Positions 1-29,496 of a stretch of DNA of 64,000 bases are shown here, in pieces. Both the position numbers and the translations under genes were made by a program. Where the stretch lies: the NCBI RefSeq assembly GCF_988243305.1, contig NZ_OZ547136.1, one strand, 5' to 3'. The notes below the pieces were generated by a model. It saw only the letters and a program-made list of their open reading frames with translations. It was not told the origin of the DNA and made no database searches. How positions within the stretch are numbered: the stretch's first letter is position 1; each line of letters begins with the position of its first letter.

Positions 1-80
1 GTGTGCCGGTCAGAACGCCCCGGCCAAACAACAGGCGAATACCGCGCGTTACCGGGGCAATCAGGCGGCTGAACACTTCA

Positions 81-1205
81 TCATTCATCAAAGCTGATCC
101 CCTGTTTTTTCATCTGCTGGCGAATAAAGGCATCAACATCGTCACCGGAACCACCCCGGCCCTTACTGTCCGGCTCTGCCGGAACGATAAAGCCGTCACG
201 CGGTGCCAGTACCAGCCGGGTGACTTCCCCGTTATGCTCATCAAGTAAAAACTCCACCTGACAGACCAGCAGTTCAGTCTGTTCTATACCGAAACGCAGG
301 GCTGAAACACCGGTCAGCAGATTGACATCCCATAACCGGCCATCATCCCGGAACCAGCCACGCACGGTGGCAGAAAACCGTTCTGAACGGGCAATCGCAC
401 GGCGCATTTCACGCAGGGCACGCTGCCGTGCACCGGTGATGTCTGTCTGTTGATCGGCGAGGATGATTTTCGGCCGGTAGCGGCCGATCTGCTCATCACT
501 GATGACGCCCACAGGTGCTGCCAGACGGGCGGCGGATTCGCTGTCTCCCCGTTTGCCACCACCGCGCCCGTGTCCCCGGACACGGTATTCGCTGTATCGT
601 CCTCGCCAGTCCGTGTTGTAATCGGCATCAAGCAGGTTATCTCCCAGCACCAGTCTGTCCGTCTGCTGGCTTCCTGCCTGGGTGAACACCAGATCGCCGT
701 CAGCATTACTGGTCACCAGCACCCCGCGATGCCGGGCAGCACGGGTCAGCGCATCCGCCACGGTTTCTGAGTTTTCCAGCGTAAAAGAGCTGAAGGGGCG
801 TGCAGCCGTGTCGTCGTTAACCTGCCAGCGCACGGCTATCCCGAAGGGCGCACATAAATCTGCGGCAATCTGTGCCAGCGTCCGGTTGCGCCACTGGCTG
901 CCGGGATGGATGGCGGCACAGTCCACCAGGTCGCCGGTTTTATCCCGACCGCTGATGCTGATCTGATGACGGGTTGCACTGATCCGCTGACTGACCTGAT
1001 CCAGCCAGCCACTGATGACCGTCTGCCCGTTAATTCTGAGCGTCAGGGACTGACCGGTCCGCAGGGCTGAGGGGATGCGCTCACCGGGCAGCATCAGCCC
1101 CAGTTCAAACGACCCGGCCAGATGCTCCAGCGAGCGACGGACGCTGACCGTCAGCCAGCCGGAAAAAATACTGCCGCCGATATACAGTTCAATCCTGCTG
1201 CTCAC
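81..1205 (-). CDS. phage baseplate/tail protein, Mu gpP (P2 gpD)-like
   Basis: 374-aa ORF immediately downstream of the N-like gene in Mu tail order; assignment is by position and size. Confidence 0.55.
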   Translation of the reverse strand: MSSRIELYIGGSIFSGWLTVSVRRSLEHLAGSFELGLMLPGERIPSALRTGQSLTLRINGQTVISGWLDQVSQRISATRHQISISGRDKTGDLVDCAAIHPGSQWRNRTLAQIAADLCAPFGIAVRWQVNDDTAARPFSSFTLENSETVADALTRAARHRGVLVTSNADGDLVFTQAGSQQTDRLVLGDNLLDADYNTDWRGRYSEYRVRGHGRGGGKRGDSESAARLAAPVGVISDEQIGRYRPKIILADQQTDITGARQRALREMRRAIARSERFSATVRGWFRDDGRLWDVNLLTGVSALRFGIEQTELLVCQVEFLLDEHNGEVTRLVLAPRDGFIVPAEPDSKGRGGSGDDVDAFIRQQMKKQGISFDE

Positions 1206-2547
1206 TGATCACCTCCACGCGGCGGCCACCCGGAACAAAAACCGGATCGGGGATATTGTTTCTGCGGACAAAATACTGCCAGCGGCGGCTGTTACCGGTG
1301 GCACGGTACAGCGTGACCAGTGCCGGTTCGGTGGTTCGCACCATGACCTGAAAAGCACCGGGAAGATGCACGCTCCGCGTGGTTAAATCTTCTGTCAGCG
1401 CAAGCCCTGCATCACGTAATGCAAGGGCGGTGCCGGTATGGCCCTGTGCGGACAGATCCAGCACCTGTTGTTCCATGGCATCGCTCAAATCCCGGTTGAT
1501 ACGCTGCACATCAGCAGAACTTTCCAGCCAGGCCAGTCCGCCCGCACGGTCAGTATCCTGAACGTGCGTCGTATTCTGCCGGATGACCTGATCCAGCAGT
1601 TTTCCGACCGTCTGCGCCTGCGACACCAGGGCTGCACTCTGCATGACGCTCCGCAGCAGACGGATATTGTTCTGTGCCGCAGGCGTCAGACCAATCAGGC
1701 GCTGCGGATCATCCTGTTCGCTGAGGGTGTAACGCAGGGAAGAAAGTGTGCGGTACAGCTGCGGCATGGCCTGCTCTGTCGTGCTGTCACGGTTTGTGGT
1801 CAGGCTGCCGGACGGCGTTCCGGCTTTTCCGGTCAGCGACAGGGAAGGATCGCCGGGCAGCCCCGCCAGCACGGCAAACATTCCGGCCAGCGATTCAGCC
1901 ATGCGACGGGGCGCATTAATCAGGGCGGCGGCATTCCCTTTCAGGGCAGTAAAACTGGCCGTAAAGGCACTGATATCCTGCACAATCCCCATCCCTGAAA
2001 CGGCATTCTCCAGCGCATCAATTTTATCGCTGATGGTGTCGGTCATGGCCTGTACATCATGCAGACCGTCTGAAATCACCGTCCAGCCGTCTGAAAGTGT
2101 GTTAAACAGCTGATTCATTGCTGAGCCGCTTTTCTGCTCCAGCGCAGCTGCCGTATCTTCTGCCACCGAAGGGGCGGTATCGTCACTGGCGGGGATCACG
2201 TTGATCGTGAACTCAACCGTTCCCTGCTCGCTGGCGTTATAACGGCTTTCAAAGCTGTTTATCAGCACGTTTAACGTGCCGTAATCCGGGTGCATCAGTT
2301 CACCGGCACCGGGTGCACGCAGCGCATCACGCAGGCGGCTTCGCTGTGTCTGAAGATCGTCTCCGGTCACTAGAACCGTGAATGTGAACTCCGGGAGTTT
2401 TGGCCCCAGATCATCCGCACCGCCGCTTTCACGCAGTGGGTATTCACGGCGCACAATGTTACGTCCGCCCCGTTCCCGCTGCTCCTGATAAACCAGGAAC
2501 GGTACGCCACGAAAGGAGCCACGCCCCGGCGTGTCAGTAGAGGCCAT
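1189..2547 (-). CDS. DNA circularisation protein N-like (Mu gp43 position)
   Basis: 452-aa ORF directly downstream of the tape measure gene, start overlapping its stop; N-terminal region resembles the phage DNA circularisation N family as I recall it. Confidence 0.6.
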   Translation of the reverse strand: MASTDTPGRGSFRGVPFLVYQEQRERGGRNIVRREYPLRESGGADDLGPKLPEFTFTVLVTGDDLQTQRSRLRDALRAPGAGELMHPDYGTLNVLINSFESRYNASEQGTVEFTINVIPASDDTAPSVAEDTAAALEQKSGSAMNQLFNTLSDGWTVISDGLHDVQAMTDTISDKIDALENAVSGMGIVQDISAFTASFTALKGNAAALINAPRRMAESLAGMFAVLAGLPGDPSLSLTGKAGTPSGSLTTNRDSTTEQAMPQLYRTLSSLRYTLSEQDDPQRLIGLTPAAQNNIRLLRSVMQSAALVSQAQTVGKLLDQVIRQNTTHVQDTDRAGGLAWLESSADVQRINRDLSDAMEQQVLDLSAQGHTGTALALRDAGLALTEDLTTRSVHLPGAFQVMVRTTEPALVTLYRATGNSRRWQYFVRRNNIPDPVFVPGGRRVEVISEQQD

Positions 2548-28650: not shown

Positions 28651-29235
28651 ATGAACATGAAAAACAGTTCTTTTCTCGACGAAGGAAAAGAACCAGTGAT
28701 CGAACGGATTTTTCGTCTTGCAGAGCGTTACAAATCGAGAAGTGAGGCGGCTAGAGCATGGGGAATAAACGTTCAGACATTGCAGAACTACTACAAAAGG
28801 AGAAACAATCAGCCGCCACCACAACCAAGAAAGCACCATCTCCAGAACATTGCAGAAAGAGAACATGTATCTATGGAGTGGCTGGTCAATGGTTATGGTG
28901 ATGAGCCAAGCATGAAAAAAGAACCAATTGAACAAACAAAAAGAACAAAAAAACAAAGAATTGATGATAGTGATTCCATCATCATGAGGGCGTGGGACTC
29001 GCTAACTTCATCTGAACAAGAGATTTTGTCCAACTTATTGATCAGAAAAGGGGCCGAACTACTAACCGTTTTGCTTGATACAGATATTCAAAAACTGCAC
29101 TCATTGAGCGGAGTCAAAAGAGCACTAGCATTGAGTCTACAAGAGTTACCCGATGATACTGTAAGAGAGATTTATGAAGAATGTGAAGCTAAGGTTAATC
29201 ATTTAAATGTAACCCAGAAAAAGGCTGGTGCGTAA
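28651..29235 (+). CDS. prophage repressor (Mu c position)
   Basis: 194 aa from ATG with AAGGA RBS; divergent from ner. Confidence 0.6.
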   Translation: MNMKNSSFLDEGKEPVIERIFRLAERYKSRSEAARAWGINVQTLQNYYKRRNNQPPPQPRKHHLQNIAEREHVSMEWLVNGYGDEPSMKKEPIEQTKRTKKQRIDDSDSIIMRAWDSLTSSEQEILSNLLIRKGAELLTVLLDTDIQKLHSLSGVKRALALSLQELPDDTVREIYEECEAKVNHLNVTQKKAGA

Positions 29236-29319
29236 GGGAGTGGTGCAATTTTTGTGCTGTAGTACACTCCTTTAAAGACAATCTGGAGAAAAACGTTTTA
29301 AGCCTTTTTAAGCGTCAAT

Positions 29320-29496
29320 CCGTAGTATCAAAAGTTTTGCCGATTTTAGAATAAACGATTAATTATTGCACAATCGGTATCAAATAGACTTTAAGCGCTC
29401 ATCCAGACATCACCTGTTTTATTTCAGTATCTTACAGGTGATTTCACCTCCTTTCACTAAAACCCTCGTTGGTATCAAATGATTCACCTGGTTACA
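29320..29496. repeat. prophage terminal region with three GTATCAAA repeats (candidate transposase binding sites)
   Basis: GTATCAAA at ~29324, ~29377 and ~29472; element ends ...CA at 29496. Confidence 0.5.

Follow-up and report, generated by a model that had tools for sequence, protein, structure and literature searches.

Left part of an Sp18-type Mu-like transposable prophage interrupting dcyD in Escherichia coli

We analyzed a 64,000-nucleotide (nt) stretch of Escherichia coli DNA (contig NZ_OZ547136.1 of RefSeq assembly GCF_988243305.1; the whole stretch is hereafter the window), in which positions 1-29496 carry a Mu-like transposable prophage inserted in dcyD, the gene for D-cysteine desulfhydrase. 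Nearly all long open reading frames (ORFs) of this region lie on the minus strand, on which the genes given below are encoded unless stated otherwise. They follow the gene order of Mu from ner (28235-28483) to a homologue of P (81-1205), at a guanine-cytosine (GC) content of 55-60% across most of the region. Positions 1-29496 very probably represent the left 29.5 kb of an Sp18-group prophage, a temperate and transposable myovirus of about 38-40 kb.

The left end of the element could be placed exactly. In minus-strand reading, the phage 5' end, TGTAACCAGGTGAATCATTTGATACC, starts at 29496 with a terminal 5'-TG, and host sequence stops at 29497, where the 5' part of dcyD begins (29497-30200). The identical terminus stands next to seven different flanks, those of the window, E. 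coli TOE17, JE86-ST02, O157:H7 Sakai (Sp18), O157 FRIK804, and two Mu-like phages located within Shiga toxin (Stx) phages (LC727881 and LC727895), confirming to the nucleotide the right-hand coordinate proposed in an earlier note on this DNA. Compared with the intact gene of BEC1-S17-ESBL-09 and JE86-ST05, the first 234 of the 328 dcyD codons precede the insertion, and the resulting fused frame meets a stop four codons inside the prophage. At the opposite side, the window edge cuts the gene for a gp45-like baseplate protein V, of which the first 30 codons are present (1-91; residues identical to the JE86-ST02 homologue), and the prophage therefore extends beyond the window. Given that complete relatives are 38.2-40.0 kb long, the window holds about 75% of the prophage, its left part. 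By analogy with these relatives, the off-window ~9-10 kb would carry the remainder of the baseplate, tail fibers, an invertase (found in most relatives), com/mom, and the right end.

To relate these genes to Mu, we compared 44 candidate ORFs with the annotated Mu proteins (NC_000929) by BLASTP; identities to Mu are amino acid (aa) identities. A Ner-like early regulator (28235-28483, 82 aa; 43% identical to Mu Ner, Pfam HTH_35 E = 2.5e-19), 100% identical across six relatives, is followed by a 696-aa DDE transposase A of the SuMu/Yersinia type (26143-28233; 21.6%, E = 8e-10) with the Pfam domains Mu-transpos_C (E = 1.5e-17) and HTH_Tnp_Mu_1 (26.9 bits, cutoff 23.3). Further early-operon genes, in Mu order, encode the adjacent MuB-like AAA+ transposition and target-capture ATPase (25128-26069; 48% over 300 aa, E = 2e-95), the host-nuclease inhibitor Gam (23245-23775; 57%, E = 1.6e-70), and GemA (gp16; 19551-20063; 47%, Pfam GemA E = 2.8e-28). 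Homologues of gp11 (69%) and gp12 (54%) occupy 22051-23099.

All homologues of Mu gp25 to gp44 are present, at comparable lengths and 33-72% identity. The packaging and head-entry genes (11597-17298; 57-72%) encode gp26 (63%), the small terminase-like gp27 (57%), the large terminase gp28 (72%), the portal gp29 (58%), and gp30 (F; 59%). Head genes (7089-11475; 40-67%) comprise G (11002-11475; 54%), the protease/scaffold I (9700-10824; 47%), the major head protein T (8753-9700; 67%), and homologues of gp35-gp38 (40-67%). The contractile-tail genes (81-7089; 34-50% identical to Mu counterparts and 98-100% to JE86-ST02) specify the sheath L (50%), the tube M (48%), the chaperone gp41 (50%) together with a 64-aa ORF, the tape measure gp42 (35%), N (gp43; 34%), and the baseplate hub P (gp44; 47%). 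The collinear homologues from ner to P, the Pfam domains, and the DDE residues described below support the earlier description of a Mu-type transposable prophage with clearly Mu-like Gam and B proteins. A lambdoid or P2-like identity is ruled out by gene content.

The same description had called the prophage divergent from Mu, and at the nucleotide level this is evident: 33% of the 29.5 kb can be aligned with Mu, at 68% mean identity, or about 22% overall, and a megablast comparison with Mu-type phages gave almost no match, just a patch of ~600 nt in D108 and SfMu. Under the practice of the International Committee on Taxonomy of Viruses, members of a species share about 95% nucleotide similarity and members of a genus about 70%. 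Assignment to the species Mu or to the D108/SfMu group is rejected at 22% nucleotide similarity to Mu.

The earlier note had further claimed that every module of the Mu life cycle in the window is an uninterrupted ORF. We examined this by comparison with stop-to-stop ORFs of six relatives (Sp18, FRIK804, JE86-ST02, TOE17, LC727881, and LC727895). Over 40 ORFs match their counterparts in length at 97-100% aa identity, among them those for A, B, the repressor, and every head and tail gene seen; the packaging and head-entry genes are likewise full length. The sole defect among the ORFs of the window lies in an accessory gene encoding a Pfam DUF2513 protein (20128-20475, plus strand), so the claim holds for the life-cycle modules. 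Situated on the opposite strand, like Mu gp15, this gene is short of one A in an A7 run near 20418 and otherwise identical to its counterparts in TOE17 and JE86. The product is 115 aa long versus 136 aa for the intact protein, with a stop 63 nt early (intact end at ~20537). The single-nucleotide deletion may be a true frameshift or an error made in sequencing the homopolymer. Sp18, FRIK804, and the two LC copies lack the gene altogether, which indicates that it is dispensable and not a life-cycle module.

The transposase retains the catalytic residues of a DDE enzyme. In an alignment with MuA and the SuMu and Yersinia phage transposases, D309, D375, and E415 align with MuA D269, D336, and E392, and the triad is thus kept. 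The protein is 77% identical to the transposase of Yersinia phage vB_YpM_5, 45% to that of Haemophilus SuMu, ~30% to those of Pseudomonas D3112-like phages, and 22-24% to MuA; it is of the SuMu/Yersinia subtype and not of the Mu subtype. The isolated Yersinia Mu-like phages vB_YpM_5 and vB_YpM_6 and SuMu share this subtype but are otherwise distinct genomes with little nucleotide similarity to the prophage. The vB_YpM_5 transposase ends ...ERDEYLNHSLDILEQNRRKKAI (LEQNRRKKAI), exactly as MuA does, and the prophage transposase (26143-26210) ends ...ERNFQRGLQLLEAKLKESDPLA; the C-terminal tail has apparently been swapped relative to vB_YpM_5. In Mu, this tail mediates the interaction with MuB and ClpX.

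The left end itself (attL; 29325-29496) contains three same-orientation TTTGATAC(C) repeats, at 29472-29479, 29377-29384, and 29325-29332, so that three of the four TTTGATAC sites in the 64-kb window fall within 172 nt of the left terminus. As in Mu, the end begins with 5'-TG and has one end-proximal repeat, here 17 nt from the tip, with two others set apart, an arrangement resembling L1 and L2-L3. In the relatives, three inverted copies of the repeat are packed at the right end, the last one 17 nt from the tip. We presume that these repeats are transposase-binding sites.

The ends of the six relatives depart from the Mu pattern. Mu has a CA-3' end and generates an invariant 5-bp target duplication. 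The right terminus of all six relatives reads ...CGCGCTATA-3', with TA and not CA. Comparison of both flanks identified 4-bp target duplications for Sp18 (TAAA), JE86-ST02 (TTCG), FRIK804 (TAAG), LC727881 (CATC), and LC727895 (AGAG), and a 5-bp duplication for TOE17 (CCAAA). The depositors of LC727881 and LC727895 had themselves annotated 4-bp repeats; a literature search found no published description of a 4-bp duplication in Sp18-type phages. For the present insertion, the right junction of an intact prophage should read ...GGTATCAAAAAAATCGCCGCGCTATA, followed by TACA (4 bp) or CTACA (5 bp) and then ACAGGCGATTGCGAAAGAAC, the rest of dcyD.

Beside the left end lies the immunity region. The 194-aa repressor gene (28651-29235, plus strand; phrog_3037, E = 1e-58) is a c analogue that points to the left end, like c in Mu. 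According to the earlier note, the repressor is not recognizably Mu-like. BLASTP indeed gave no match to Mu c, and the DNA-binding N-terminus carries a different helix-turn-helix (HTH), with a weak match to Pfam HTH_23 and matches to phrog_4/2328. At the profile level, however, the C-terminal half does resemble Mu c: residues 92-189 match phrog_7148 (E = 2.7e-7), the family of Mu c (E = 1e-66), and Mu c matches phrog_3037 reciprocally (E = 8.5e-5). The claim therefore stands for the N-terminus and fails for the C-terminal half. Mu c consists of an N-terminal winged-helix domain shared with the N-terminus of MuA and a C-terminal multimerization and stability domain. Unlike in Mu, BLASTP found no similarity between the N-termini of the prophage repressor and its own transposase. 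The protein thus looks like a non-Mu HTH N-terminus joined to a distantly Mu-c-like C-terminal half. We found no S24/UmuD-like domain in it, unlike in the CI-like SuMu repressor, which has one; the lack of this domain fits the reported lack of SOS induction in Sp18.

The repressor type varies among relatives as part of an exchangeable cassette. It is 99% identical to the repressor of FRIK804, 98% to that of TOE17, 42% to the Sp18/JE86 type, and 37% to that of vB_YpM_5, which also belongs to phrog_3037. Counted in nt from the left end, the window matches Sp18 at 99% over 1-176, is unrelated over 177-678, and matches again at 88% from 679 onward; relative to JE86-ST02, the same 502-nt immunity cassette (177-678) is replaced. 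The divergent c-ner regulatory region (28484-28650) contains putative operator repeats, AGAAC(A/C)AA, at 28546-28597 in the window and in FRIK804, with CCAAAATACC / GGTATTTTTGG in their place in Sp18. A CGGATAT palindrome beside ner (28504-28543) is identical in all elements compared, as is Ner. A putative sigma-70-like early promoter has its -35 element at 28573 and a -10 element ending at 28544. Position and co-variation with repressor type suggest the operator and promoter roles, and with them the pairing of repressor and operator. Inside the repressor gene, 380 nt from the c-ner cluster, is a second AGAAC(A/C)AA cluster (28916-28950; a 24-nt direct repeat, 83% identical); it might serve as a distal operator in DNA looping or arise as a side effect of encoding a lysine-rich linker. 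Since the repressor is 42% identical to the Sp18 type and the operator repeats differ, a distinct immunity type is plausible.

Mu employs Mor and C in a two-step cascade of Mor then C, and the window has a single Mor/C-family gene (19058-19480; Pfam Mor E = 6.7e-31). Situated directly upstream of the endolysin gene, it shares 40% identity with Mu C and 28% with Mu Mor. A 75-aa early ORF has a marginal Mor match (E = 0.001) and no Pfam match. All Sp18-group relatives examined likewise carry one Mor/C-family activator. Because Sp18 is among them and its DNA is packaged, we regard the single activator as a family trait and not a defect; its product is presumed to activate the late genes.

Together, these elements suggest a life cycle on the Mu plan. 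In the lysogen, the 194-aa repressor would bind the AGAAC(A/C)AA repeats between c and ner and hold the early promoter off. Upon derepression, the early operon would produce Ner, the DDE transposase A, the MuB-like ATPase, Kil, Gam, and the accessory proteins. Transposase A would then bind the TTTGATAC(C) repeats at both ends and, with B, copy the genome to new chromosomal sites by replicative transposition with no excision. The single Mor/C-family activator would subsequently turn on the lysis, head, and tail genes, and headful packaging from integrated copies would yield virions with host DNA at both ends. This copy may be active today by such a route.

The most unusual thread in these comparisons is the Sp18-type TA-3' right terminus with its mostly 4-bp duplications. 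A SuMu/Yersinia-type transposase, the TA-3' end, 4-bp duplications in five of six relatives, a single activator, and a hybrid repressor could be taken to mean that the Sp18 group, this prophage included, departs from Mu-type transposition in its mechanism and not just in its sequence. We offer this tentatively and consider it doubtful on present evidence. If true, the two strand-transfer sites of the transpososome would have to be spaced differently to give a 4-bp stagger.

Apart from the genes with clear Mu counterparts, the early region includes several small ORFs. Five of them (23787-25131) encode products of 75 aa, 88 aa (Kil-like), 93 aa (PHROG "host nuclease inhibitor"), 90 aa, and 106 aa, belonging to phrog_3375, phrog_2679 (Kil), phrog_1518, phrog_4107, and phrog_2230; all are full length relative to the relatives, and none matches a Mu protein by BLASTP with an E value better than 0.001. 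A low-GC accessory block (20499-22047; GC 0.447) consists of a D5-like/SANT-Myb regulator (21496-22047) and three function-unknown ORFs (block families phrog_323, phrog_6925, phrog_6158, and phrog_1988) and varies among relatives. A PADLOC search of the accessory early ORFs returned no match, and NCBIfam added nothing further. In all, the repressor and nine small or accessory early ORFs lack a significant BLASTP match among Mu proteins, in agreement with the earlier note's statement that several early genes are not recognizably Mu-like.

The lysis cluster (17291-18986) is composed of an endolysin (18486-18986; 40% identical to Mu Lys, Pfam LysC), Rz/Rz1-type spanins (18023-18421 and 17821-18063; phrog_214 Rz-like spanin), a DksA/TraR zinc-finger protein (17583-17810; Pfam zf-dskA_traR), and a gp25-like DUF2730 protein (17291-17602; 33% identical to Mu gp25). 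An extra 82-aa ORF of unknown function (16165-16413, minus strand; phrog_30922) lies between the gp27 and gp28 homologues. JE86 also carries it; Sp18, FRIK804, and the two LC copies do not. Over its final 30 residues it is similar to the gp27 C-terminus (53% identical to Mu gp27), suggesting a partial duplication.

Two intergenic spacers in the head region deserve mention. F and G overlap in Mu, whereas here they are separated by a 121-nt spacer with a degenerate tRNA-like relic on the strand opposite the genes (11507-11596, plus strand). The relic has a canonical T-arm (GCGGG-TTCGACC-CCCGC) and an acceptor-like stem, with no proper anticodon arm. It is 99-100% conserved in four relatives and 74% in Sp18, has no similarity found in Mu, and is annotated "tRNA-OTHER" in the JE86 genomes by the Prokaryotic Genome Annotation Pipeline. 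ARAGORN scans of the window and of the relatives detected neither tRNA nor tmRNA, and an Rfam search of positions 1-30000 at permissive E values gave one chance-level snoRNA match only; we therefore treat the annotated feature as a degenerate relic. Both strands of the spacer relic fold no better than shuffled sequences. The 177-nt spacer between G and I (10825-11001) lies near the genome center, where Mu has its strong gyrase site, and a comparison with that region of Mu found no sequence similarity; from its position, the spacer might serve as a gyrase site.

E. coli Mu-like prophages of the Sp18 group have been described in print (PMC2669165), and the prophage is one of them and no new divergent phage. 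Its general plan is that of Mu, c / ner-A-B-kil-gam...gemA-activator-lys-head-tail. Identity multiplied by coverage over the 29.5 kb amounts to 97% for JE86-ST02, 87% for FRIK804, and 82% for Sp18, versus 22% for Mu. By megablast, the Mu-like phages residing in two Stx phages match all of the 29.5 kb at 92%. Of 5,426 complete E. coli genomes, 258 contain the late region, at up to five places per genome.

Sp18 shares with the prophage an identical left terminus and end repeats, the same gene order, and nearly identical early proteins (Ner 100%, A 98%, B 99%, and Gam 99% at the aa level). It differs in its sheath, tape measure, N, and P proteins (74-77% identical), in the accessory block at 20-22 kb, in having no 82-aa ORF between gp27 and gp28, and in its repressor type and insertion site. 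FRIK804 has the same repressor type as the prophage (99%). The closest relative overall is the copy in citF of JE86-ST02, an Stx-producing enteroaggregative E. coli (Stx-EAEC) O86:H27 (AP022811): most proteins are 98-100% identical, and the late region is 98.5% identical in nt over window positions 1-20000. The host backbone of JE86-ST02 is nearly identical as well. Two annotated pseudogenes of that copy are intact in the prophage, whereas DUF2513 is intact there and frameshifted here. Sp18, FRIK804, and TOE17 each have, at the right end, an invertible fiber segment with its invertase as well as com/mom; no invertase is annotated in the JE86-ST02 copy.

Relatives occupy seven sites: sorM (Sakai), the prpD-prpE spacer, citF (JE86-ST02), cheB (TOE17), flgK (JE86-ST05), and two Stx phages. 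Published work reports Sp18-like phages in clonal complex 119 (CC119) Shiga toxin-producing E. coli (STEC) at one to three copies, at variable loci and also inside other prophages, and ascribes this variable location to transposition (PMC10132054); Sakai and FRIK804 carry Sp18-type phages at different sites (PMC7430833). The suggestion that the prophage is a potential insertional mutagen is well founded in that relatives lie at many loci (PMC10132054, PMC7430833) and the present copy already disrupts dcyD. Sp18 itself was judged intact in silico, and its DNA was efficiently packaged, with no mitomycin C induction and no circularization (PMC2669165). As Sp18 is not inducible in this way and Mu-like DNA is not excised or circularized, mitomycin C induction and excision PCR are unsuitable assays for Mu-type phages.

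JE86-ST05 has a second Mu-like prophage, in flgK (1405000-1448000), with a third type of repressor, ner, and transposase. Many frameshifts are annotated in this copy, possibly nanopore homopolymer errors. We considered whether it is a transposed twin of the citF copy, which would have shown recent activity in this backbone, and rejected this on account of its different early region, which points to a separate acquisition. JE86 isolates were reported to be non-motile (PMC7366661).

The host part of the window bears on how the prophage came to lie in dcyD. The rest of the window (tcyJ, fliZ, fliA, fliC-fliR, rcsA, dgcQ, dcm, vsr, and ompC) is collinear and gap-free with JE86-ST05, an Stx-EAEC O86:H27. 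Only 57 mismatches separate the two over 34,504 nt, yet 48 of these fall in 29613-32171 and nine in the other 31.8 kb. The divergent 2.7-kb tract (dcyD', tcyJ, fliZ, and part of fliA) adjoins the prophage; it differs by 1.8%, against 0.03% elsewhere (backbone 99.97% identical), and is 99.8% identical to unrelated strains. Moreover, dcyD is intact in JE86-ST02 and JE86-ST05, and the phage itself is ~1.5% divergent from the JE86 copies and has another immunity cassette. On the simplest reading, the prophage-bearing dcyD segment was imported from another E. coli through transduction or conjugation and then joined this backbone by homologous recombination, one crossover lying near 32.17 kb. However, the polarity of the tract could be reversed, with the JE86 lineage as the recombinant; the other flank is off-window; the dcyD-prophage junction, and with it a donor, was not found among 5,426 complete genomes; and the fliC neighborhood is known as a recombination hot region. 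Weighing these points, we give import an even chance. Elsewhere in the host part, at window ~41238-41360 between yedK and fliE, collinearity with JE86-ST05 identified a 123-nt integrase fragment (annotated there as an incomplete pseudogene), apparently a small relic of another mobile element.

A second possibility is that the element is a grounded, defective Mu-like remnant, without a working right end or without essential tail genes, or unable to move for another reason. About one-quarter of it is off-window, one ORF is already frameshifted, and its JE86-ST02 relative has two annotated pseudogenes and a right part without the invertase present in Sp18 and TOE17. Set against this are the more than 40 full-length ORFs at 97-100% aa identity, the intact left-end repeats, and the restriction of the only defect to a dispensable accessory gene absent from Sp18, and we judge a defective remnant improbable. 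Still less credible, to the point that we give it hardly any weight, is that another copy of the resident Mu-like prophage of the JE86 (O86:H27) lineage jumped into dcyD, for although the backbone outside the divergent tract is 99.97% identical to JE86-ST05 and the late region is closest to the JE86 copies (98.5%), the 1.5% phage divergence far exceeds that of the backbone, the repressor cassette is of the FRIK804/TOE17 and not the JE86/Sp18 type (42% aa), and the early region of the second ST05 copy (flgK) represents a third type.

We therefore return to the reading of positions 1-29496 as the left part of a transposable Sp18-group prophage in dcyD, against which four points weigh. One accessory ORF, DUF2513, is frameshifted. 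The divergent 2.7-kb flank means that the present location may reflect imported donor DNA and not local transposition. With the right ~9-10 kb and the right end off-window, completeness and transposition competence cannot be judged from the window, and for this copy the reading derives from sequence. The earlier characterization of the prophage as intact accordingly applies to the visible part, in which all life-cycle ORFs are full length relative to six relatives, and does not extend to the roughly one-quarter, including the right end, that lies outside.

For annotation, the region can be labeled an Sp18-type Mu-like transposable prophage (partial in the window) with dcyD disrupted. The prophage is an ordinary member of a described family, and the current understanding of Mu-like phages is unchanged by it. 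What the comparisons do illustrate is that Sp18-type phages transpose and can knock out genes, as with dcyD here, cheB in TOE17, flgK in JE86-ST05, sorM in Sakai, and the Stx phages of CC119 STEC. Through such knockouts they can alter phenotypes and complicate typing in pathogenic E. coli. The swap of the immunity cassette, in turn, implies that one lineage can harbor several heteroimmune Mu-like phages side by side.

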